From NCBI GenBank assembly GCA_964398045.1, contig CAYNLM010000001.1, positions 13,964-77,963 of the forward strand: a stretch of DNA of 64,000 bases, written 5' to 3'. This DNA is from an uncultured Nitrospira sp. (GTDB lineage Bacteria; Nitrospirota; Nitrospiria; Nitrospirales; Nitrospiraceae). Below are positions 3,918 to 56,893 of the stretch, in pieces; position 1 is the first letter of the stretch; each line of letters starts with the position of its first letter. The notes under the pieces were generated by a model. That model saw nothing but the letters and a program-made list of their open reading frames with translations, was not told the DNA's origin and did not search any database. The position numbers were made by a program, and so were the translations under genes.

Positions 3918-4859
3918 GTGGACGGACGACTCGGCATTAGTCTCTTGGTCTTCGTTGGCTGTGCGGTCGGCCTGTGGAGTGTCTCTGCCTGGGCCGAACG
4001 CCGACGCCAGGTATTGCGCTGGCGCACACTGGTGATCGGGCGCCCCGACGGGTACCACATCCAGGATCTGCTCGCCGACTGGTTGTCTTTCGGCGCTCAC
4101 CTGCTCGAACGCATCGGGCGAATGCTCGACGCGAAGGCAGGAGAGGAACTCACGCATCTTCCCAACCGCTTCACCACGGCAGGGTATCGTCATCCATGCG
4201 TCCCGTTCATGTGGCATGGCGCCAAGATTGCCGGGCTGATCGGTTTCCCGTGTCTGTGGGGCAGCCTGGGCGCGTCGGCCTTTCACGAGGTCCATCCGGC
4301 GGCGGTCTGGATGGGCGGGATCGGCATGGCGGCCTGCGGCTGGTACGCGCCGGATCTGTGGCTGCGCCGGCTCGCCGACCATCGCAAGCGGACCATCGAG
4401 CGCGGGTTTCCCGATGCGCTCGATCTGATGGTGGTGTGCGTCGAGGCAGGGTTGCCCTTGGACTCCGCGCTCCGCCGCGTCGGAACCGAATTGCGCATCG
4501 GTCACCGCGAACTCAGCGAGGAATTGAGTCTCCTGTCGATGGAACTCCAGGCGGGGCGGGCACGGGCGGAGGCCATGCGGAGGTTCGGTCTCAGAACGGA
4601 CATCGATGAAGTGAAGAATTTCGTCGCGCTGCTTGTCCAAACGGAGCGATTCGGGACGGGATTGGCGCAGTCGCTGCGGGTGCATTCCGAGGCGATCCGC
4701 CGCCGTCACCAGCTCAGGGCGGAGGAACTCGCGTCGCAGCTTCCGGTGAAAATGCTGTTCCCGCTCGTGTTCTTCGTCTTGCCACTGCTCTTCATCATCC
4801 TGGTCGGACCGATTCTACTGCGAGGAGTGCAGTCGATGTTGCCGGGCGCTGCCGGGTAG
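3918..4859 (+). CDS. tadC: Tad pilus inner-membrane platform protein TadC (T2SS-F domain)
   Basis: A second T2SSF-like protein ('GFPDALDLMVVCVEAGLPLDSAL') with C-terminal TM helices, following tadB. Confidence 0.75.
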   Translation: MDGRLGISLLVFVGCAVGLWSVSAWAERRRQVLRWRTLVIGRPDGYHIQDLLADWLSFGAHLLERIGRMLDAKAGEELTHLPNRFTTAGYRHPCVPFMWHGAKIAGLIGFPCLWGSLGASAFHEVHPAAVWMGGIGMAACGWYAPDLWLRRLADHRKRTIERGFPDALDLMVVCVEAGLPLDSALRRVGTELRIGHRELSEELSLLSMELQAGRARAEAMRRFGLRTDIDEVKNFVALLVQTERFGTGLAQSLRVHSEAIRRRHQLRAEELASQLPVKMLFPLVFFVLPLLFIILVGPILLRGVQSMLPGAAG

Positions 4860-4872
4860 GAGGGCGTGGAAG

Positions 4873-4977
4873 TTTCACGTTGCAAGTTGTGAGTTTCAGG
4901 TTTCGAGTTTCAAGTTGTTGACGAACTAGAAACTTGGAACCTGAAACATGAAACTAGAAACTCCAAGCTCGAAACCA
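4873..4977. repeat. Inverted word-repeat element (GTTTCA / TGAAAC words), tadC/TPR-lipoprotein spacer
   Basis: The central hairpin pairs 4893-4912 (GTTTCAGGTTTCGAGTTTCA) with 4928-4947 (AGAAACTTGGAACCTGAAAC) at 17/20. It is flanked by further GTTTCA and GAAAC words. Confidence 0.6.
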
Positions 4978-5038
4978 CGGGTGACGAACGATGAGCGACG
5001 GACGAAGAGGACGGCTTTTTAAGCAGTGGAGGAAGAAC

Positions 5039-6028
5039 ATGACACGGATGGTGCTGGTGATACTTCTAGCTCTGACGGCATCGAGCGTGGCCGGATGCGG
5101 ATCCGGCGCGGCAGCTTCGGTCAAGAAATCGCCGGCATCTGCGGACAGGAGCGGGGAGACGCCGCGCGACACAGATGAGGCGGAAGCCCTATCGATCGCG
5201 CGCGAAACGCCGACTGCGGATGAGTATGAGCAACTCGGCGATACCTATGTTCGACAGGGAAACTGGACTCTGGCGCTGCTGCAGTACGATCGCGCGTTGA
5301 AGGCAGCGCCTCGTCACGCGCGGGTCGGACACAAGAAATATCTGTTGTTCCTTGCGAACGGACTCCATGCCGATGCCGTCGCCGGGTTTCGTGCGCTGGT
5401 GCGGGAAGAACCGCACGATCCGCACGCATGGGAGGGCCTTGGCCGGTCGCTCCTCCAAACGGGGCAGGAGGCGCAGGCCGAGGAAGCCTTGCGTCGAGCC
5501 GTTCAAGAGAACGCGCGACTCTGGAGAGCGCATGCCCTGTTGGGGGTGCTCTACGATCTGCGCCAAGAACATGGCCGGGCGGTGGCGGCCTATCGGACCG
5601 CGCTAGAACTGAAGCCCGACCGCCTCGATGTCCGTAACAATCTTGGGCATGCCCACTACCTCCTGGGCGACTATCGCAAGGCGATCGAGGAATTCACGTT
5701 TGCCAAGAAACAGGGATACTCCGAGGCGACCGTTCATAATAACCTCGGTCTCGCGCTGGCAAAGACGGGAGCGTACAGGGAGGCGTTGGCCGCGTTTCGG
5801 CTGGGCGGGACGGAGCCGCAAGCCTTCAACAATCTCGGCATCGTGTATCTCGAAGCCGGGCAGGCGGCCAATGCGGTGGCTTGTTTCCGGAAGGCGATCG
5901 ACGCCAATCCCAAATTCGACCAGCGGGCCAACGAGCAGCTCGCTGTTGCGCAGTCTGTTCTGCGGCAAGAACGGACCCGTCGGACTCTCCGTCCGGAACG
6001 GGGCGCGAACGTCTGTTCGGAACCGTAG
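5039..6028 (+). CDS. TPR-repeat lipoprotein (TadD-like)
   Basis: Signal peptide with lipobox 'LTASSVAGC'. Multiple TPR units ('AWEGLGRSLLQTGQEAQAEEALRRAVQ', 'NNLGHAHYLLGDYRKAIEEF'...). ATG 5039 is preceded by GGAGGA. The ORF track begins at 4991. Confidence 0.6.
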   Translation: MTRMVLVILLALTASSVAGCGSGAAASVKKSPASADRSGETPRDTDEAEALSIARETPTADEYEQLGDTYVRQGNWTLALLQYDRALKAAPRHARVGHKKYLLFLANGLHADAVAGFRALVREEPHDPHAWEGLGRSLLQTGQEAQAEEALRRAVQENARLWRAHALLGVLYDLRQEHGRAVAAYRTALELKPDRLDVRNNLGHAHYLLGDYRKAIEEFTFAKKQGYSEATVHNNLGLALAKTGAYREALAAFRLGGTEPQAFNNLGIVYLEAGQAANAVACFRKAIDANPKFDQRANEQLAVAQSVLRQERTRRTLRPERGANVCSEP

Positions 6029-6363
6029 AAATGCCGCTGCGACGATTATGCGTCGCTCGTCGTTCGTGAAGCGTGAAGCGCAAACAAGAATGACGCGGAC
6101 GGGCTCTTGATCGCGAGATACGAACGACGCTTCACGAGATACGACGCCCAGACGGTTTCGTCACGAACCGTCATGAATCATGCGGGATAGCCTCTGGCCT
6201 CGCGCCTCTTGCCGTCGAAAGCAGCGATTGCAGGCCCGCCTGCGGGCGCGGGCAGGCAGCAGTGTTCATGGATCATTCGGGTTAAGTTTCGAAGGCGCCG
6301 GGCCGACAACATACAGACAAGAAGGCAGTGCAGCTCGGCGGGTCACAGGCTTGTGGAGGGGTG

Positions 6364-49429: not shown

Positions 49430-50737
49430 TTAGTGCCGTACCGCAATCCGTTCTGGGTGCAGGAGATTGGCTGCCTCAGCTTCATGGATCAACGAGACGT
49501 ATTCGGACCGCCAATGCTTCAGCGTGCTCTGGATCGGGGCGATCGCCGCGTCACCAAATGCGCAGACCGTGCGGCCTGCGATGTTCTTGCATAGATCGGT
49601 CAGGGTTTCAAGGTCCTGACCCCGTCCCTGTTTGGCGACGATTCGGCGCATGGTCTGCACCAGCCAGGAGGTGCCCTCGCGACAAGGGGTACATTTCCCG
49701 CAGGACTCATGGTAGAAAAACTCCATCAGCCGGAGCGCCGCCCAGACCATGCTGGTCCCTTCCTCCATCACGGTCACGCCGCCCGAGCCGAGCATCGATC
49801 CTGCCGCCGCGACCGACTCGAAATCCAGTTTCACGTCGAGATGATCCGGAGTGAGGAAGGGCGCCGAGGCTCCGCCGGGAATGAAGGCTTTGATCGGTTT
49901 GTCGGAACGCATGCCGCCGGCATGTTCATAGATCAATTCCCGGAACGTGACGCCCATCGGGACTTCGTAATTCCCCGGGCGTTTCGCATGACCGCTCACG
50001 CAGAACACCCTGGTGCCCGTGCTCTTGGGCGGCGAGCCGATCGAGGCGAACCATTCGGCGCCTCGGTTGAGAATGTGGGGCAGGTTCGCCAGCGTCTCGA
50101 CGTTGTTCACCACGGTCGGCTTGTTATAGAGGCCGTGCGTGGCGGGGAGCGGCGGTTTCACCCGCGGCAGGCCCCGTTTGCCTTCGAGTGATTCGAGGAG
50201 CGCCGTTTCTTCACCGCAGATGTAGGCCCCGGCTCCTCGATGGACCCAGACCTCGACGTTGATTCCGGTTCCCAGGATATTCTTTCCGATGTAGCCGGCG
50301 GCGCGCGCTTCGCCGAGCGCCCGCTCAAGGATCTTCGAGCCCAGCACCATTTCACCGCGTATATAAATGTAGGCGGACTCGGCTCCGATCGCATAGCAGG
50401 CCAGCACGATGCCCTCGAGCAGTTGGTGCGGGTCACGCTCCATCAATTGGCGGTCTTTAAACGTGCCGGGCTCGCTTTCATCTGCGTTGCAGCAGAGGTA
50501 CCGAGGGCCTTGGTACTCTTTCGGCAGGAATCCCCATTTCACTCCGGTTGGGAAGCCGGCTCCGCCGCGTCCCCGCAAGCCCGATTTCATGACTGTGGCG
50601 GTCACGTCGGCCGGCGCAACCTTGCCCAGTGTGTTACGCAGGGCTTGATAGCCGCCCGTCTTCTCATAGTCCGCCAGCGTCCCGGTGTATCCGGGCTGCG
50701 ACATGTTTTTCAGGAGGATCAGTTCGTGTTTGGGCAT
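49430..50737 (-). CDS. nuoF: NADH-quinone oxidoreductase subunit F
   Basis: 'GRGGAGFPTGVKW', 'ESEPGTFKDR', 'CGKCTPCREG'. Confidence 0.95.
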   Translation of the reverse strand: MPKHELILLKNMSQPGYTGTLADYEKTGGYQALRNTLGKVAPADVTATVMKSGLRGRGGAGFPTGVKWGFLPKEYQGPRYLCCNADESEPGTFKDRQLMERDPHQLLEGIVLACYAIGAESAYIYIRGEMVLGSKILERALGEARAAGYIGKNILGTGINVEVWVHRGAGAYICGEETALLESLEGKRGLPRVKPPLPATHGLYNKPTVVNNVETLANLPHILNRGAEWFASIGSPPKSTGTRVFCVSGHAKRPGNYEVPMGVTFRELIYEHAGGMRSDKPIKAFIPGGASAPFLTPDHLDVKLDFESVAAAGSMLGSGGVTVMEEGTSMVWAALRLMEFFYHESCGKCTPCREGTSWLVQTMRRIVAKQGRGQDLETLTDLCKNIAGRTVCAFGDAAIAPIQSTLKHWRSEYVSLIHEAEAANLLHPERIAVRH

Positions 50738-50746
50738 CGTTATGCT

Positions 50747-50801
50747 AAGGCAAAAGGAAAAAGTTTGTGAGCAGCCATTTTTTACTTTTGCCTTTTTACT
50801 T
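50747..50801. repeat. Inverted word-repeat element (AAGGCAAAAGG-type), nuoF/nuoE spacer
   Basis: AAGGCAAAAGGAAAAAGT (50747-50764) is complementary to ACTTTTGCCTTTTTACTT (50784-50801) at 15/18. The related word string AAGGCAAAAGGCAAAAGTAACAAGTAAAAGG occurs at 42010-42040 in the nuoM/nuoL spacer. Confidence 0.6.
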
Positions 50802-50809
50802 TGAACTTT

Positions 50810-51340
50810 CTACTTGGCGCTCTGCGCTTCCGGCCACATGTATGGGCCGCTCTTCAAGGAACTGGTTCCCGTCGTCTTCAAGTCGGCCAGGATGCGATCC
50901 ACTTTTTCCTCGGTCAGCCGCTCGTAATAGTCGTCGTTGATCTGCATCATCGGGGCGGTCCCGCAGGCGGCCAGGCATTCCACCGCGCTGAGTGTAAAAA
51001 GGCCGTCGGCCGTCGATTCGCCGGGAGAAATGCCGAGCTTGGACGTGATCCATCCGATCACGGTATCCGAACCCACGAGAGCACACATGAGCGACTTGCA
51101 CACCTGAATATGAAACCGCCCCACCTTCTTCAAATTCAACATGCTGTAGAAGGTGACCGTCTCGTACACCTGCGGCGGCGTCAGGTCGAGCAGTTTGGCG
51201 ATCTCTTTCATCGCCGGTTCGGTGATGTAGCCCTGATCGCGCTGCGCCAGGTACAGCAGCGGAATCAATGCACTCCGTTTCACCGGATAGCGGCTCAGCA
51301 ACTCGGCTATTTCGTCTTTGTATTTTTCAGCCAGTGTCAT
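50810..51340 (-). CDS. nuoE: NADH-quinone oxidoreductase subunit E
   Basis: 'HIQVCKSLMCAL' and 'ECLAACGTAPMMQIND' (2Fe-2S ligands). Confidence 0.95.
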   Translation of the reverse strand: MTLAEKYKDEIAELLSRYPVKRSALIPLLYLAQRDQGYITEPAMKEIAKLLDLTPPQVYETVTFYSMLNLKKVGRFHIQVCKSLMCALVGSDTVIGWITSKLGISPGESTADGLFTLSAVECLAACGTAPMMQINDDYYERLTEEKVDRILADLKTTGTSSLKSGPYMWPEAQSAK

Positions 51341-51412: not shown

Positions 51413-51533
51413 GGTGAGGGAGCGGAGGGTGCCCTCACCTGCGCGCATGCAACGAGCACCGCCCGCTACTTTCAATCTGATTGGTCTTGCGTGCGCGTTG
51501 CGCGAGCAAGAGGGCATCCTCCGCTCCCTCACC
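51413..51533 (-). repeat. Long-hairpin intercistronic element, copy A (nuoCD/nuoE spacer)
   Basis: The 24-nt arms at 51413-51436 and 51510-51533 are complementary at 23/24 positions. A conserved 27-nt core lies at 51439-51465. The nuoCD stop codon lies inside the arm. Confidence 0.7.
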
Positions 51534-53358
51534 TATCACACTCCCCCATCACGATATCGTACGTCCCGAAAATCGTAATAATATCGGAAATCAGATAGCC
51601 GCGAGCCATGTGGTCGAAGGCGCCCATGTGAATGAATGAGGGCGAGCGGATCTTCAATCGATAGGGACGGGGGCTGCCGTCGCTGATGATGAAGAAGCCC
51701 AATTCGCCTTTGGGCGCTTCCGTCGCACAGTAGGTCTCGGCTTTGGGCGGCTTGAATCCCTGGGTGAAAATGATGAAGTGGTGGATCAGGCTTTCCATGT
51801 CGCGCATCACTTGCTGCTTGGGCGGCGGAATATATTGCGGCACGTCGGCCATGATCGGTCCCGGCGGCATCTGGTCGAGACATTGCGCGATGATGCGCGC
51901 GCTCTGGCGCATCTCTTCCATGCGAATCCAGTAACGGTCGTAGGTATCGCCGTGTTTCCCGACCGGCACTTCCCAATCCACCTTGTGATAGACGCCGTAG
52001 GGCTCAAGCTTGCGGATGTCATAGGCCACACCGGACCCACGCAATGTCGGACCCGTGAGGCCGAAGTTGATGGCGTCTTCGGCTGAAATCACCGCGACGT
52101 TTTTCGTGCGTCCCAGCCAGATGCGGTTGGAGGCGATCAGCGAGTCGTATTCACCGACCTTCTGCGGGAAAGTCTCCAAAAACGTTTTGAGGCGAAGGAC
52201 CAAGTCGGGCGTGAAATCACCGTCGACGCCGCCGATACGGTAGTAATTCAACGTCAGGCGCGCCCCGCAGAGCTTCTCGAACATGTCGAGCAGAGTTTCC
52301 CGTTCGCGGAACGTCCAGAAGAACACCGTCATGGCGCCGATATCGAGGGCCTGAGTCCCGAGCCAAAAGAGGTGCCCGATGATCCGCTGCATCTCCGCCA
52401 CGATCGTGCGGATGTATTCGGCGCGTTCCGGCACGGTGATGCAGAGGAGCTTCTCCACCGCCCGCACATAGGCGTAGTTATTCGCCATGGCGCAGACGTA
52501 ATCGAGCCGGTCGGTGTGTGGAATGACCTGCATGTAGGCAAGGCCTTCGGCCAGCTTTTCCACGCCACGATGCAGATAGCCGAGATCCGGCGTCGCCTTC
52601 ACGATACGTTCGCCGTCCAATTCGAGCACGACGCGCAGCACGCCGTGGGTGCTCGGATGTTGCGGGCCCATGTTGAGCAGCAGTTCTTCTTGTCGCCGCG
52701 ACCCCGACGGACCCGTCTCTGCGATGAAGGGTTTCTTTTGGGCCTCGGGAATTTCACCTTCGCTCTGTTCGACCGGCGGCTCATCGAGGCGCGGAATAAA
52801 GTCGAACTGCGAACGCCAGCCTCGGCCTTCCGTGGGGAAATCCTTCCGCAGCGGATAGCCTTCCGCGTAATCTTCAGGCATCAGAATGCGGCGTAAATCC
52901 GGATGGCCGGTAAATCTGATGCCCATCATGTCGTAGACTTCGCGCTCCAAAAACTCCGCGCCGCGCCACACGCTCGTCACCGAGTCGATGGTCGGATCGT
53001 CCTCCGTGACTCTGGCCTTGAGACGAATCCTTCTCCCATGAGGCAGCGAGAGCAATTGGTAGATCACTTCGAACCGTGCTTGATCTTCCGGATAGTCGGC
53101 GGAGCAGATGTCGGTGATGTGATCGAAGGCGGCTTCCGGCGCATCGCGCAGGTAGCGGGCGATCTCGAGAATCTTGGGCGCCCGCACCTGGGCGGATACT
53201 TCCGAACGGGCGGTATCGACATTGACAGACAGGACCGCCTCAGGGAATCTCTTCAATAAAGTTTCGATGAGGGCTTGCATAGTGTCATGCTGCGAGAGAC
53301 GCGCGACTTGCGAGAAAAGCGCGATTGCCGAGTCACGCACGTCCCGCCACTCTCGCAC
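51529..53358 (-). CDS. nuoCD: Fused NADH-quinone oxidoreductase subunit C/D
   Basis: The N-terminal ~170 aa are NuoC-like ('WRGAEFLEREVYDMMGIRFTGHPD'). The rest is NuoD ('NMGPQHPSTHGVLR', 'YLHRGVEKL', C-terminal 'VMGECDR'). The listed start is GTG 53358; an alternative ATG lies at 53280. Confidence 0.9.
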   Translation of the reverse strand: MREWRDVRDSAIALFSQVARLSQHDTMQALIETLLKRFPEAVLSVNVDTARSEVSAQVRAPKILEIARYLRDAPEAAFDHITDICSADYPEDQARFEVIYQLLSLPHGRRIRLKARVTEDDPTIDSVTSVWRGAEFLEREVYDMMGIRFTGHPDLRRILMPEDYAEGYPLRKDFPTEGRGWRSQFDFIPRLDEPPVEQSEGEIPEAQKKPFIAETGPSGSRRQEELLLNMGPQHPSTHGVLRVVLELDGERIVKATPDLGYLHRGVEKLAEGLAYMQVIPHTDRLDYVCAMANNYAYVRAVEKLLCITVPERAEYIRTIVAEMQRIIGHLFWLGTQALDIGAMTVFFWTFRERETLLDMFEKLCGARLTLNYYRIGGVDGDFTPDLVLRLKTFLETFPQKVGEYDSLIASNRIWLGRTKNVAVISAEDAINFGLTGPTLRGSGVAYDIRKLEPYGVYHKVDWEVPVGKHGDTYDRYWIRMEEMRQSARIIAQCLDQMPPGPIMADVPQYIPPPKQQVMRDMESLIHHFIIFTQGFKPPKAETYCATEAPKGELGFFIISDGSPRPYRLKIRSPSFIHMGAFDHMARGYLISDIITIFGTYDIVMGECDR

Positions 53359-53368
53359 GTCTCGCGGG

Positions 53369-53848
53369 CTATTTCACAAAGACCTTCTCGCGTTGAATTT
53401 TTTCCTGCAGTTTCAGCAGGCCGTCGAGCAGCGCTTCAGGACGCGGCGGACAGCCGGGCACATAGACGTCCACCGGCACAATCTGATCGACGCCCTGCAC
53501 GACGGCATAGCTGTTGTAGTGATTCCCCGACGTCGCGCAGGAGCCCATCGAAATCACGTAGCGGGGTTCCGGCATCTGGTCGTAGATGCGTCGGATGACG
53601 GGGGCCATCTTGCGCGTCACGGTTCCGGCGACAATCATGAGGTCGGACTGCCGGGGCGACGCGCGGAAGACGCCGGCGCCGAACCGGTCGAGATCGTAGC
53701 GCGACGACACGCTGGCGATCATTTCGATGGCGCAACAGGCCAGTCCGAACGTCATCGGCCACAAGGCCGATTTCCTCGCCCAGTTCACGACGGCGTCCAG
53801 ATTCGTCGTGATGATGTTGGCTTCCAACTGCCGCTCTAAAAAACTCAT
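53369..53848 (-). CDS. nuoB: NADH-quinone oxidoreductase subunit B
   Basis: 'GLACCAIEM', 'MGSCATSG', '[11 protein letters not shown]'. Confidence 0.95.
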
Positions 53849-53871
53849 CCCGTTTGTATCCTTCTAACCGA

Positions 53872-53993
53872 GAAGGGGCGAGGGGGGTGTCCCTTACTGC
53901 GCGCATCCACCGAGCACCACCCGAATTTCTTGGCTCTCATGTGATTTTTGGTGCGCGGTGGGCGAGCCCCAAGGACATCCCCATCGCCCCTTC
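53872..53993 (-). repeat. Long-hairpin intercistronic element, copy B (nuoA/nuoB spacer)
   Basis: The arms at 53872-53895 and 53971-53993 form about 21 pairs. The core at 53897-53923 matches copy A at 24/27. The nuoA stop codon lies inside the arm. Confidence 0.7.
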
Positions 53994-54363
53994 AATCCCA
54001 TTCGAGCGCCCCCTTTTTCCACGCGTACCAGAAGCCCACGATCAGAATGCCGATAAACACGACCATCTCCACTAATCCAACCAAGCCGAGCTTGTGAAAG
54101 GCAACGGCCCACGGGAACATGAACACGATCTCGATGTCGAAGATGACGAACAGCATCGCAATGATGTAGTACCGCATCGGAAACTGGACCCGCGCATCTT
54201 GAAACAGCGGGCTGCCGCTTTCATAGGGAGCCAGCTTCGCCCGATAGGGGCGGCTCGGACGAACGACCCAGCCGGCCAGGAGCGACACCGCGCCGAAGGC
54301 AATCGCGATCCCGATGAAGACCAGGATCGGGTCGTAGTTTGCGGGTACCGCGGCGTTACCCAT
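53992..54363 (-). CDS. nuoA: NADH-quinone oxidoreductase subunit A
   Basis: 'YESGSPLFQDARVQFPMRYYIIAMLFVIFDIEIVFMFPWA'. Confidence 0.95.
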   Translation of the reverse strand: MGNAAVPANYDPILVFIGIAIAFGAVSLLAGWVVRPSRPYRAKLAPYESGSPLFQDARVQFPMRYYIIAMLFVIFDIEIVFMFPWAVAFHKLGLVGLVEMVVFIGILIVGFWYAWKKGALEWD

Positions 54364-54444: not shown

Positions 54445-55689
54445 TCATGCGGCGGAACCCACGGCGAGGGCTTCGCCGAAGAAGGGTTTAAACTGCAACC
54501 CGTCCAGTTCAGGCCGCTCGATTCCTTTGTGTTGCATGAGCACCTTAAAGGTCGTTCCCATCCCGTCGGGTCGTAAGAGATGAATCGCGGCACGGAACTC
54601 CGGGCTTTCGGGTTCCAGCTCCGCCATCATGTTTTCGACACCGAGGCCCATGAGAAAACTCATCTGATTGGTAAAGCCGGTGACATGGAGTCCGTGGTCT
54701 TCACCCACTGCGGCCAAGCTCGAAAAATCCACGTGCGCCGTCATGTCCTGCTGGCCGACGCGCTGGTAAGGATCTTCGGAGGTCAACTGGGAGTAATAGC
54801 AGAGCAGCGTGCCTTCGGACCGATCGGCGTTATAGAGATCCTGCGCCGTGTGACCGTAGTCGATGGTGATGGCGACGCCACGGTCGAGCGCGCCGGCAAC
54901 CTGCTCCATCCACTTCAGGGCATTGAGATTGATCTCGGTTCGATAGCCTTCCGGCAGGGAAATATTCAGGCGAGTCAGGTGATGCTCTAATTCCTGGTTT
55001 GACAGCGGCTTGAGTTGTTCGACGAATTTCTGATCGTGATGGTCTACATACACTTCCTGCGCTCTGCCTTCCACGATCTGGATGCGGTGCACCGGAAAAG
55101 CGTCCGGCAATTCGTTGCTGAACACCAGGCCGACCACGGCTGCAGAACCAAGGCTCTGAACATCCTCCACCCAGCTGACCAGTCCTGGCGTGCCGAGCCA
55201 TTCTTTAAGGTTGCTCTGCTGCAGCTTCCGCATGGCGGGACTGCGCTCGACAAGCACAAAGCGGAGGCGACGGCTCAAGGAGCCATCATCACTCAAGACT
55301 GCGCGGAGGAAATCGCTCGCCAGCAGGCCTTTGCCGGCGCCCATTTCCACGACGGTGAAGGGATCCGGATGACCGAGCAACGCATCGATCTGCCGTGCTT
55401 GTCTGGCGAGGGCTTGTCCCAGAATCGGATGCACGTCCGAACTGGTGTAGAAATCGCCGGACCAACCGATTCGTTCGCGTCCGGCTTCAGGCGAACGCAT
55501 GTAGTAGCCGAATTGCGGATGATAGAGCGCCAGCTCCATGAAACGGACGAAGGGGATGGGGCCCGAGGCGGCAATCTCGGAGGCGATGGCAGCGACAAGT
55601 TCAGGATGCCCAAGCGTCACAAAGAAGTCCGTTTCTCTGCTGACAAGGTTCTTAAACAGAGACACCAATCCGGGACGGGTAGGTGTCAC
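54445..55689 (-). CDS. MidA/NDUFAF7-family (DUF185) class I SAM-dependent methyltransferase
   Basis: 'FMELALYHPQFGYY', 'DFYTSSDVHPILGQ', SAM-binding 'VVEMGAGKGLLA', 'NELPDAFPVH'. Same strand, 81 nt upstream of nuoA. Confidence 0.8.
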   Translation of the reverse strand: MTPTRPGLVSLFKNLVSRETDFFVTLGHPELVAAIASEIAASGPIPFVRFMELALYHPQFGYYMRSPEAGRERIGWSGDFYTSSDVHPILGQALARQARQIDALLGHPDPFTVVEMGAGKGLLASDFLRAVLSDDGSLSRRLRFVLVERSPAMRKLQQSNLKEWLGTPGLVSWVEDVQSLGSAAVVGLVFSNELPDAFPVHRIQIVEGRAQEVYVDHHDQKFVEQLKPLSNQELEHHLTRLNISLPEGYRTEINLNALKWMEQVAGALDRGVAITIDYGHTAQDLYNADRSEGTLLCYYSQLTSEDPYQRVGQQDMTAHVDFSSLAAVGEDHGLHVTGFTNQMSFLMGLGVENMMAELEPESPEFRAAIHLLRPDGMGTTFKVLMQHKGIERPELDGLQFKPFFGEALAVGSAA

Positions 55690-56660: not shown

Positions 56661-56724
56661 AAGATGTATCGTAATCCCAACCGAAATCGAAGGCAACTTC
56701 TAATCTGCTCTCTCTTTTGCAAAG

Positions 56725-56861
56725 CTAGGAGCCTGTCCGACATTAGGAATCGCGAAAAATCCGAGGCACACATTTGGCTCAGGATCAACGATCGCCACGT
56801 AACGAAAGGTTTAGACACCCCCGAAATCGGGCAATTTCGGCAATGTCGGACAGGCTCCTAG
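56725..56861. repeat. 137-nt element bounded by perfect 20-bp inverted repeats (MITE-like or large operator/stem-loop)
   Basis: CTAGGAGCCTGTCCGACATT (56725-56744) is the exact reverse complement of AATGTCGGACAGGCTCCTAG (56842-56861). An internal hairpin CCGAAAT-CGGGCA-ATTTCGG lies at 56821-56840. Confidence 0.75.
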
Positions 56862-56893
56862 ACTTGGCTGCATTTCGACGTATACTAATTTGT

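Follow-up and report, generated by a model that had tools for sequence, protein, structure and literature searches.

Both long hairpins of the nuo operon analysed here are copies of a palindromic intergenic repeat family of about 120 nt that extends across Nitrospira and Nitrospirales and that is apparently previously undescribed. They are located in a window (the whole stretch of DNA that was analysed) of 64,000 nucleotides from an uncultured Nitrospira sp. On balance, we lean towards a mobile origin of this family, as REP/ERIC/MITE-like palindromes that are co-transcribed with their neighbours and act at the RNA level, and not towards a regulator devoted to Nuo. The genus Nitrospira, to which the comammox organisms belong, contains the main nitrite oxidisers; to our knowledge, nothing is known about post-transcriptional signals or genome repeats in this genus.

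The nuo hairpins and their family

The nuo genes are on the minus strand, and the two homologous hairpins first noticed in a sequence-only reading are present between them, with the following layout:

50810..51340, minus strand: nuoE, flanking gene (Pfam PF01257)
51413..51533, minus strand: copy A, whole element, in the nuoCD>nuoE spacer (covariance model R1, 110 bits, E 1e-26)
51413..51436, minus strand: outer arm of copy A, 3' arm in mRNA sense, locus-specific, partner of 51510-51533
51440..51460, minus strand: conserved core arm of copy A, TGCGCGCATGCAACGAGCACC on the plus strand
51461..51490, minus strand: apical loop region of copy A, about 30 nt, semi-conserved (mode of loop length in the family 29-33 nt)
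51491..51508, minus strand: second core arm of copy A, GTGCGCGTTGCGCGAGCA on the plus strand
51510..51533, minus strand: outer arm of copy A, 5' arm in mRNA sense, with the nuoCD stop codon (51529-51531) inside
51529..53358, minus strand: nuoCD fusion, flanking gene (Pfam PF00329 and PF00346)
53369..53848, minus strand: nuoB, flanking gene (Pfam PF01058), with the Shine-Dalgarno sequence GAAGGA at 53859-53864
53872..53993, minus strand: copy B, whole element, in the nuoA>nuoB spacer (R1, 96.9 bits, E 4.5e-23)
53872..53895, minus strand: outer arm of copy B, 3' arm in mRNA sense
53898..53918, minus strand: conserved core arm of copy B, TGCGCGCATCCACCGAGCACC on the plus strand
53951..53968, minus strand: second core arm of copy B, GTGCGCGGTGGGCGAGCC on the plus strand, its S and K positions covarying with the first core arm
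53971..53993, minus strand: outer arm of copy B, 5' arm in mRNA sense, overlapping the nuoA stop codon (53992-53994) by 2 nt
53992..54363, minus strand: nuoA, flanking gene (Pfam PF00507, E 6.5e-39)

The true start of nuoCD is likely the ATG at 53283; the orthologous ORF of N. moscoviensis encodes 583 aa.

A repeat search found the arm pairs to be 83% and 90% complementary and detected a 48-nt direct repeat common to both copies (77% identity). The conserved interior was also recovered, the 27-nt degenerate core matching exactly twice in the window and never in 100 shuffles. The minimum free energy of copy A is -80.5 kcal/mol in mRNA sense (z -7.3) and -84.6 kcal/mol on the plus strand, that of copy B -69.3 kcal/mol (z -4.3) and -73.7 kcal/mol; folding z-scores for both copies range from -4.3 to -10.1, and none of 200 shuffles folded equally well. 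The upstream stop codon was rightly placed in one arm, completely in copy A and through the 2-nt overlap in copy B. The elements had also been said to end shortly before the next ribosome-binding site, which holds for copy B, located 23 nt from the nuoB ATG (53846-53848) with GAAGGA in between, but not for copy A, located about 72 nt from the nuoE ATG. The two copies mark module boundaries of a single operon and are no more than 2.5 kb apart; the covariance model sees no third copy in the window and none at its nuoB>nuoCD and nuoE>nuoF junctions.

The 21-nt core is present in at least 117 genome stretches and, among the core matches listed, 113 carry the label Nitrospira, Nitrospiraceae, Nitrospirales or Nitrospirota. 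The covariance-model scan proposed in the sequence-only reading yielded 98 matches at E<=1e-15 in 89 sources and also recovered further diverged copies and tandem copies; solo half-copies exist as well. An orthologue of copy A is present in N. moscoviensis (locus L059, 4356-4479), and orthologues of copy B are present at loci L002, L021, L035, L036, L048, L051, L085 and L097. No family copy was found in viral contigs or plasmids. As the earlier reading had presumed, no described element matches: Rfam 15 gave no match in the window at gathering thresholds (and at E<=10 only sub-threshold noise from miRNA precursors), and literature searches retrieved no paper describing this repeat family and nothing for Nitrospira.

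Conservation is concentrated in the core. Orthologous copies share 94% of their core, 64% of their outer-stem and 59% of their loop positions, compared with 53% identity at third codon positions; between paralogous copies, the corresponding values are 90%, 38% and 53%, and the outer stems keep only a faint positional consensus (z 8.4). Core variants are locus-specific, so concerted evolution is absent. Family copies are vertically inherited at many junctions but come and go on longer timescales, or give way to other hairpin families.

Pairing and strand asymmetry of the stems

Members of the family are built from an outer stem of 22-24 bp, a core stem of about 40 nt and a loop of usually about 31 nt. 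The length of the outer stem is that of the column-wise pairing profile, the stem lengths from RNAfold on long-flanked sequence and from a strict stem-extension script being unreliable; its edge is sharp, with 91-94% pairing inside and 55%, 42% and 34% immediately beyond. Its sequence varies by locus and is about 90% paired throughout. The core stem carries conserved 1x1 mismatches and, in the sense strand, two invariant G.U pairs.

The observation that the stems differ in sequence and stay complementary extends from the two nuo copies to the family: 91.8% of the pair cells are paired, a figure that falls to 67.9% for shuffles and to 33-50% for a slid partner, and all 22 outer pairs are changed on both sides. 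In the core, one covarying pair is GC in 58 copies and CG in 34, and another is CG in 73, AU in 17 and UA in 4. The further step taken in the sequence-only reading, from covariation to selection on structure, calls for caution. Covariation alone is no proof of selection on RNA structure: templated correction from arm to arm of quasi-palindromes could yield the same pattern, and the outer stems have a wobble bias towards the antisense strand. Hypermutation of the outer stems was considered for loci L004 and L117 (flanks 95% identical, stem about 45%) and rejected, the difference corresponding to a rearranged upper stem and register shifts.

This wobble bias is pronounced. Read in mRNA sense, transition mismatches of the outer stem are A.C in 59 cases versus G.U in 23 (p 9e-5), and outer stems gain 4.5 kcal/mol in stability when folded as antisense, a direction shown by 32 of the 41 locus groups (p 1e-6). 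The strand preference of whole-element energies is not significant (68 vs 48, p 0.07); the core contains two conserved G.U pairs, which help the sense strand and bring whole elements to about the same energy on either strand. Outer-stem mismatches recur at columns 12-14 and 19-22. Mutation bias was rejected as the source of the A.C excess, silent sites being skewed in the opposite direction (G>C and T>A at four-fold sites of the sense strand), and the stems are therefore not shaped by simple selection for maximal stability of the mRNA hairpin. A bias general to intercistronic hairpins of Nitrospira was rejected too, since 21 hairpins of other families split into 12 sense and 9 antisense. The better antisense pairing of the outer stems counts against the explanation that we favour below.

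Placement between genes and turnover at junctions

Copies of the family sit between co-directional housekeeping genes, e.g., sucC/sucD, ribBA/ribH, guaA/rluB, rpmJ/rpsM and folD/metF, and the flanking nuo, suc, rib, gua, pur and ribosomal-protein genes are conserved across species. A copy starts at the upstream stop codon, or a few nt from it, and family-wide ends 10-50 nt ahead of the next start codon, before the ribosome-binding site. In the modelled orientation, 61 of 87 copies have an ORF of at least 100 aa ending at the base of the stem together with an ORF start at most 80 nt downstream, versus 8 of 87 in the reversed-orientation control; a cruder ORF call gave 48 versus 5. The orientation relative to transcription is nearly always the same, a co-oriented gene start nearly always lies downstream, and copies are near absent from convergent gene pairs. 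Given this single orientation, we infer from position that the elements are transcribed as part of polycistronic mRNAs.

Replication does not set this orientation, since copies in N. moscoviensis flip within 40-60 kb and inside a single replichore region, following the genes. The elements do not supply the stop codons either, the upstream C-termini being native and conserved (GuaA TIEWE*, NuoD GECDR*, NuoA LEWD*). A promoter and terminator scan gave no signal tied to the elements, and no intrinsic terminator (a GC-rich hairpin followed by a U-run) was called at copy A or B; the 3' flank of family copies is purine-rich, with few T.

The nuoA>nuoB and nuoD>next-gene junctions of relatives are empty (L120, L134 and L135), occupied by this family or occupied by one of several unrelated hairpin families, and the nuoA>nuoB junction of N. 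moscoviensis contains a different element. Other palindromic families are also present in the window and in the compared loci. Since the same nuo junctions are empty or otherwise occupied in relatives, the elements have been gained, lost and replaced, and are dispensable for Nuo stoichiometry.

Origin of the family and comparison with known elements

Direct signs of mobility are few. Flanking direct repeats are not in excess over controls (p 0.12), so that no target-site duplication was detected overall, and repeats of 7-9 nt at the stop/start junction occur at a few loci (AAGGTATGA, 9/9, at L018; GGTGAGCG, 8/8, at L084; sucC>sucD). A tblastn search with E. coli RayT in 1.35 Mb of Nitrospira-related DNA, a small part of each genome, gave a best E of 0.33, and neither a distant partner arm nor a transposase of an autonomous parent IS was found beside solo core arms at the sampled loci. 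Copying of the outer arms from the flanking target was rejected, own flanks being no closer to the arms than those of other loci in 5/5 comparisons, and the ATGGGAT repeat at nuoA (L125 and the window) was therefore treated as chance. In consequence, mobility is deduced only from the multi-locus distribution and the polymorphism of junctions.

In the explanation we favour, the family would descend from a non-autonomous mobile palindrome comparable to REP/REPIN, ERIC or MITE elements, and its surviving copies would be very stable intercistronic RNA hairpins. Such hairpins would uncouple neighbouring cistrons; they may act as barriers or processing sites, offering an RNase III-type duplex or blocking 3'-exonucleases, and, by analogy, might hinder ribosomes terminating at the adjacent stop codon. 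An effect on RNA processing, stability or coupling is plausible. The invariant core would imply a sequence-specific factor, either a mobilising enzyme or a host protein. A REP/MITE-type mobile repeat is also the best supported of the roles listed in the sequence-only reading; the random distribution attached to it there does not fit, copies being intercistronic and strand-oriented. One point against a mobile element is that such strong core conservation in old, vertically inherited copies would be unusual for a decaying element.

This same point bears on a doubtful but sizeable alternative, in which the copies are purely selfish, mostly immobile MITE/REPIN-like DNA, with arms kept by templated correction and with position and orientation merely marking harmless insertions. 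Junctions that are empty or carry unrelated hairpins in relatives, which indicate that no particular element is required, agree with it, as do the coexisting palindromic families in the window and loci, the solo half-copies and tandem copies, the direct repeats at loci such as L018 and L084, and a wobble bias that shows no preference for the mRNA strand. However, neutral decay should erase the core like the loop and stems, whereas the core is 94% identical between orthologues with silent sites at 53%; tolerance alone would not lead one to expect the orientation bias (61 versus at most 8), convergent gene pairs, the safest sites, are near empty, and the overall test for target-site duplication gave p 0.12. 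The turnover of junctions weighs against the leading idea of the sequence-only reading, that the hairpins are a dedicated cis-regulatory RNA of nuo setting subunit or module stoichiometry (nuoA / nuoB-CD / nuoE-N). Two copies at module boundaries within 2.5 kb and the conservation of copy A in N. moscoviensis would suit it, but the family is dispersed over dozens of unrelated junctions, the nuoA>nuoB spacer of N. moscoviensis is taken by another element, the junctions of relatives are empty or hold other families, and two further nuo junctions of the window lack a copy. The comparative data have already largely refuted this proposal, which we consider highly improbable.

The strand asymmetry raises another prospect, an unlikely one in our view, that the functional form is a folded antisense ssDNA site whose core is read by a recombinase or HUH enzyme, the mRNA hairpin being a tolerated, weaker by-product. 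It would account for outer stems that are systematically more stable antisense, in a manner that mutation bias does not explain and that the 21 other hairpins (12 versus 9) do not share; by analogy, the fixed stem length, free sequence, post-stop position and uniform orientation would follow attC logic, and the conserved core mismatches would recall enzyme-recognised hairpins. On the other hand, the flanks are vertically inherited housekeeping operons and not cassettes, the boundary motifs RYYYAAC/GTTRRRY and GTAG/CGTC are not conserved, no RAYT was found in the 1.35 Mb searched, and orientation tracks transcription and not replication, unlike in lagging-strand-dependent ssDNA elements. Moreover, the core G.U pairs favour sense with whole-element energies about equal, and the recurrent mismatch columns could make the asymmetry partly founder inheritance. 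A bolder form of this idea, to which we likewise give little credence, sees a domesticated module (invariant mismatched core, two-turn free stem, strict polarity) with a selected fold opposite the mRNA: it would be a new class of ssDNA or antisense-RNA sites following attC-like logic outside integrons, read by a Nitrospira-specific enzyme, at boundaries continuously re-colonised by competing hairpin families. Somewhat less probable still are regulon-like docking sites on mRNA, where a Nitrospira-specific RNA-binding protein or sRNA would bind the core and co-ordinate downstream genes. The strong per-locus constraint on the core, its 1x1 mismatches and invariant sense G.U pairs, and the nearly constant presence of a co-oriented gene start downstream speak for such sites; against them, the downstream genes share no function, relatives replace the elements with unrelated hairpins, no partner was identified, and the predicted fold hides the core inside a long duplex instead of exposing it.

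In core operons (complex I, succinyl-CoA synthetase, riboflavin, purine, ribosomal proteins), this oriented, genus-wide element probably helps to determine how differently the genes of one operon are expressed. It is also useful as a marker in strain typing, and it poses a known risk in assembly and annotation. The family offers about 100 parallel examples per genome of a long helix that drifts near silent-site rates and yet stays paired, beside a core that does not drift, at cistron boundaries repeatedly re-occupied by different hairpin families; its strand asymmetry makes it possible to ask directly if such palindromes are under selection as RNA or as DNA.

REPINs are REP doublets that form hairpins and are mobilised by RAYT (HUH Y1) transposases. 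The Nitrospira family resembles REP, BIME and REPIN sequences in being abundant, extragenic, vertically persistent and lineage-specific palindromes, and its core arms TGCGCGCATSCAMCGAGCACC and GTGCGCGKTGSGCGAGCA, inverted and about 31 nt apart inside an extra outer stem, form a REPIN-like doublet. It differs from them in that conservation is confined to the interior, around which a 22-24-bp outer stem can vary freely in sequence, and in that copies have one orientation to transcription and almost never lie between convergent genes. REPs are recognised as imperfect palindromes of 20-40 nt with a GTAG (or CGTC) tag at one end (PMC3733652); no such tag is conserved at the core or element ends in the family consensus and flank profiles. 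In E. coli, REPs at most 15 nt from a stop codon are reported to impede terminating ribosomes (secondary citation in PMC12306157); stop-proximal REPs reportedly alter how the upstream gene is translated, and upstream mRNA is stabilised by REP hairpins (PMC12306157, PMC3116915, PMC3337134). As a lead only, the GGGGWSAS of TIRYT-associated repeats (PMC3733652) resembles the G-rich run plus TGA in the 5' flank of the family.

Like MITEs, the elements are small and non-coding, exist in many copies, have complementary ends and vary in presence or absence between relatives; unlike in MITEs, the terminal arms are 38% identical between non-orthologous copies versus 90% for the core. Neither an overall target-site duplication nor, at the sampled loci, a parent IS with matching ends was found. 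They share with attC sites a structure kept with free sequence, a size of 60-140 nt, a position directly after ORF stops and a uniform orientation, and in attC it is the strand opposite the mRNA that adopts the functional fold, which would agree with the wobble bias towards antisense. However, R''/R' core sites (RYYYAAC ... GTTRRRY) are absent from the element boundaries, conservation is central and not terminal, the flanks are vertically inherited housekeeping operons without cassettes, and no integrase context was seen. The MIRUs of mycobacteria are tandem direct repeats encoding small peptides. They are similar in being intercistronic within operons, with fixed orientation and close to stop and start codons, but they are not long palindromes.

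The ERIC/IRU elements of enterobacteria and the Correia/NEMIS elements of Neisseria are, like the present family, imperfect palindromes of about 100-150 nt; they are inserted in transcribed intergenic regions and co-transcribed as long mRNA hairpins, as the present family would be. They show no sequence similarity to it, as far as a comparison with curated Rfam families covers them. Furthermore, they are conserved over their full length, with terminal inverted repeats and, for Correia, TA duplications, whereas the Nitrospira family is conserved only in its centre and has no detectable target-site duplication. For ERIC and Correia, orientation-dependent effects on the stability of flanking mRNA and processing by RNase III/E are reported (reviewed in PMC2229807, PMC3184786). 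In the modelled fold of the Nitrospira family, the 22-24-bp lower stem below a 1x1-mismatched core would fit the geometry, a duplex of at least about 20 bp with an internal loop, of an intercistronic RNase III site of the T7 R1.1 or rRNA type.

Hairpins of the nuo operon and other palindromes of the window

The sequence-only reading had placed two homologous long hairpins in spacers of the nuo operon, and this was confirmed: copies A and B are imperfect long palindromes with arm complementarity of 83% and 90%, respectively, and have in common a 48-nt stretch with 77% identity. Their 27-nt degenerate core has exactly two matches in the 64-kb window versus none in 100 shuffles. Folded as mRNA-sense RNA, copy A reaches -80.5 kcal/mol (z -7.3) and copy B -69.3 kcal/mol (z -4.3), energies that no shuffled sequence equals. 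The nuoCD stop codon (51529-51531) lies within an arm of copy A, as had been described, but that of nuoA (53992-53994) overlaps the arm of copy B by 2 nt only. The distance from the end of the element to the next ATG is 23 nt for copy B (nuoB) and about 72 nt for copy A (nuoE).

Features of the window (x>y denotes the spacer between genes x and y)
4879-4961: long hairpin with degenerate heptamer repeats (GTTTCAR) as arms, -38 kcal/mol, z -5.3
6057-6144: inverted repeat TCGTCGTTCGTGAAGCGT / ACGCTTCACGAGATACGA, directly after ORF 4991-6028
49430-50737, minus strand: nuoF
50738-50809: small hairpin in the AT-rich nuoE>nuoF spacer (GC 0.33), -14.9 kcal/mol, z -2.2
50810-51340, minus strand: nuoE
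51413-51533, minus strand: copy A, occupying most of the nuoCD>nuoE spacer
51529-53283 (or 53358), minus strand: nuoCD fusion
53288-53361: hairpin in the nuoB>nuoCD spacer, -40.7 kcal/mol, z -2.0
53369-53848, minus strand: nuoB
53872-53993, minus strand: copy B, occupying the nuoA>nuoB spacer
53992-54363, minus strand: nuoA
54445-55689, minus strand: Methyltransf_28 gene (PF02636), immediately upstream of nuoA
56716-56870: MITE-like element, -68.8 kcal/mol, z -7.1, with 92% complementarity between its 25-nt terminal inverted repeats

None of the other hairpins listed belongs to the family of copies A and B (the core family), and the nuoB>nuoCD hairpin has no relatives in the compared database loci. 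The hairpin at 4879-4961 lies between the co-directional plus-strand ORFs 3918-4859 and 4991-6028; hairpins of this repeat-built type also occupy nuo junctions of related metagenome loci, and the 'CGTGAAGCG' palindromic family of the 6057-6144 repeat also fills the nuoA>nuoB junction in two loci (L118 and L123). The arms of the MITE-like element find exact matches over 19-24 nt in loci L113 and L026. The product of the PF02636 gene is of the NDUFAF7/MidA type, a family that includes the arginine methyltransferase acting in the assembly of mitochondrial complex I.

Distribution and gene context of the core family

When the 21-nt core TGCGCGCATNCANCGAGCACC was scanned against one genome per species, at least 117 genome stretches matched; 113 of those listed belong to assemblies of Nitrospira, Nitrospiraceae, Nitrospirales or Nitrospirota, with a single assembly often contributing several, and N. 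moscoviensis and strain NS4 have three stretches each among the matches listed. The four matches from other phyla, located within coding sequence and devoid of a second arm, were discarded as chance. Among the compared loci, the covariance model R1, built from 91 copies in mRNA sense, gave 98 hits (E<=1e-15; 89 sources) plus diverged copies and tandem pairs not caught by the exact core pattern; with filters off, its only hits in the window were copies A and B. These extra hits, drawn from a biased sampling, suggest a density of about one copy per 40-50 kb, which would correspond to tens to about 100 copies per genome. Tandem or clustered copies occur in L015, L020, L042, L070 and L072, and solo half-copies with a single core arm in L041, L068, L074 and L090. 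No copy was detected in the viral contigs and plasmids searched. Rfam contains no match to the family, a full-text literature search retrieved no description of such an element in Nitrospira, and the claim that it matches no described element therefore stands. Nitrospira is absent from two published surveys of bacterial stem-loop repeats, and one published tool paper covers N. moscoviensis solely by generic palindrome counts.

Among the 87 copies with enough flanking sequence, 61 have, in the modelled orientation, an ORF of at least 100 aa ending at the stem base and another starting at most 80 nt downstream, versus 8 in the reverse orientation, a number close to noise for a GC-rich genome; with a cruder gene call, the figures were 48 versus 5. 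The first base of the stop codon mostly lies 0-9 nt ahead of the first paired base, and the start codon usually follows the last paired base by 12-50 nt.

Genes flanking core-family copies
Identified with Pfam:
nuoA > nuoB and nuoCD > nuoE
fumarate-reductase-like flavoprotein > sucC > sucD
cstA > yajQ
amidohydrolase > AIM24
DUF1015 > sigma-54 response regulator
guaA > rluB-like
M16 peptidase > MBL hydrolase
ribBA > ribH
folD > metF
Recognised by reading translations:
purS > purQ; rpmJ > rpsM
copies upstream of mdh and of queF

The upstream stop codons are native, since they follow conserved C-termini (GuaA ..TIEWE*, NuoD ..GECDR*, NuoA ..LEWD*). Orientation tracks the genes rather than the replichore, with reversals over 40-60 kb on two contigs and, in N. 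moscoviensis, between 0.52, 0.66 and 1.23 Mb. Together with the near absence of copies between convergent genes, the bias in orientation points to a constraint linked to transcription. On the sense strand, purines prevail and C is scarce in both flanks (C 5-13% at -18..-1 and 1-9% at +4..+24; 96 copies), and the codon preceding the stop is G-rich, often GGGGTGAG; 19 of 27 junction groups have G at -1. A promoter and terminator scan revealed no signal associated with the elements.

Structure, evolutionary rates and strand asymmetry

In mRNA sense, the element runs from the upstream stop codon through the outer 5' arm (22-24 nt, G-rich, then 5-6 pyrimidines) and UGCUCGCSCAMCGCGCAC to the loop, and from there through GGUGCUCGKUGSAUGCGCGCAG and the outer 3' arm to a purine-rich spacer, which harbours the Shine-Dalgarno sequence, and the start codon. 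The loop measures 29-33 nt in about 80% of copies, and 5-9-nt loops are found in variants from more distant Nitrospirales. In one subfamily (L006, L017, L020, L045, L049, L070, L077, L081, L082, L087 and L094), an additional conserved structured module of about 40 nt (sense sequence TTATCCCGTCGCC..GGCTCCGGGTCGAACAAGTTCTGTTT), without match in Rfam, is nested inside the loop at several different junctions and is missing at the orthologous junctions of other species.

Standard pairs make up 91.8% of the pair cells in a structural alignment of 98 copies, versus 67.9% in column shuffles and 33-50% with a slid partner, and all 22 outer-stem pairs exhibit changes on both sides; the observation that the stems differ yet remain complementary thus extends from copies A and B to the whole family. 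The core includes two covarying pairs (GC 58 / CG 34; CG 73 / AU 17 / UA 4) and retains three conserved 1x1 mismatches and two invariant G.U pairs. Pairing amounts to 91-94% inside the stem and 81% at the last modelled pair, then falls to 55%, 42% and 34%, a sharp end from which it follows that the stem has one set length, about two helical turns, at all loci.

Between orthologous copies (flanking coding sequence 75-85% identical, third positions 53%), the core is 94%, the outer stem 64% and the loop 59% identical; the corresponding values for non-orthologous pairs are 90%, 38% and 53%. Outer stems change roughly as fast as silent sites with pairing kept, and the core does not drift. The core variants GCAACG, CCACCG, GCACCG and GCATCG are locus-specific and not genome-specific, CCACCG being present in all nuoA>nuoB orthologues and GCAACG in copy A and its N. 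moscoviensis orthologue; concerted evolution is therefore absent, and each locus keeps its core under constraint. Paralogous outer stems exhibit a faint positional consensus (5.67 bits versus 4.15 +/- 0.18 in position shuffles) that is consistent with an ancient shared origin of the entire element. Copying of the outer stems from the local flank was ruled out by flank comparison.

Transition mismatches of the outer stem are asymmetric in mRNA sense, with 161 A.C versus 66 G.U in all copies and 59 versus 23 (p 9e-5) when each locus group contributes one copy. By itself, the outer stem folds more stably on the antisense strand, by 4.5 kcal/mol on average (antisense favoured in 75 copies, sense in 18, with 5 ties; 32 of 41 groups, p 1e-6), an asymmetry specific to the core family, since other hairpins split 12 versus 9. 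At silent sites of the flanking genes, the sense strand has G>C and T>A, a mutation bias that would yield the reverse of the A.C excess. The invariant core G.U pairs favour the sense strand, which makes whole-element energies similar on both strands, and a founder copy may have passed on part of the asymmetry, given that certain columns are repeatedly mismatched (column 22, for instance, is A.C in about 30% of copies). Two readings fit this: an mRNA hairpin that is kept slightly weak, or a selected fold located on the opposite strand, as DNA or antisense RNA. The stability bias of the antisense outer stems would suit recognition of a folded DNA strand in the manner of attC integron sites or of RAYT, the transposase of REP/REPIN systems; we consider this improbable, and no RAYT was found in 1.35 Mb of Nitrospira-related DNA.

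Junction turnover, origin and possible role

Copy A is common to the window and N. moscoviensis, where it lies at about 516.4 kb (CP011801) and whose nuoA>nuoB junction (L059 6776-6912) carries an unrelated hairpin of about 107 nt, likewise beginning at the stop codon. This hairpin represents a second palindromic repeat family with further copies at L116 4714-4794 and L093 4704-4800, the latter apparently at a sucC>sucD junction, as judged from its inferred position. Among 80 metagenome loci retrieved via NuoB, the core family occupies either nuo junction in a few close relatives only. At nuoA>nuoB and nuoD>next gene, loci L118-L136 are empty, with a 9-13-nt spacer (e.g., GATTGA-GGGAGGAAGGAAG-ATG in L120), or filled by the core family, short-loop variants included (L121, L123, L125, L126 and L131), or by several unrelated palindromic families, some with arms of degenerate heptamer repeats. 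The L125 element is placed precisely after the stop codon and ahead of the Shine-Dalgarno tract known from the empty site. The same family is present at both boundaries in three genomes examined: the window and L121 (core family) and L119 (an AT-rich TTCAACATTCA family). These empty, filled and replaced junctions indicate that elements are gained, lost and replaced, and that Nuo expression depends on no particular one of them. The sequence-only interpretation is thus partly supported: its option of a REP/MITE-type mobile repeat agrees with the data, but the core-family element, dispersed over many unrelated junctions, is not a nuo-specific regulator.

Taken together, the data show a dispersed palindrome that lies between cistrons within predicted operon transcripts, oriented with the genes, and that combines a constrained core with an outer stem of set length. 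It probably originated as a non-autonomous mobile palindrome, mobility being inferred solely from the distribution of the family and from junction polymorphism. No parent element was found in the compared loci, and no overall target duplication was detected, although sequences at L018 (AAGGTATGA 9/9), L084 (GGTGAGCG 8/8) and sucC>sucD (CGTGAGC) look like duplicated stop/start junctions.

Retained copies probably act at the mRNA level, a reading with which the antisense bias of the outer stems does not agree. Given its stability of -70 to -85 kcal/mol, a hairpin that begins at the stop codon and ends ahead of the ribosome-binding site would be expected to uncouple translation of the adjacent cistrons, to block 3'-exonucleases or be cut as an RNase III-type duplex, and to hinder terminating ribosomes. 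Such hindrance has been reported for E. coli REPs at most 15 nt from a stop codon (summarised in PMC12306157).

The core family should be useful, and somewhat surprising, to researchers working on bacterial repeats and on Nitrospira; it would form a new category only if the folded strand were recognised at the DNA level. Its nearest functional precedents are the ERIC and Correia elements (reviews PMC2229807, PMC3184786). The element is a REP/ERIC/MITE-like intergenic palindrome, unusual among these for its conserved centre combined with an outer stem of free sequence and fixed length, for its strict polarity relative to transcription and for its antisense-biased wobble pattern.
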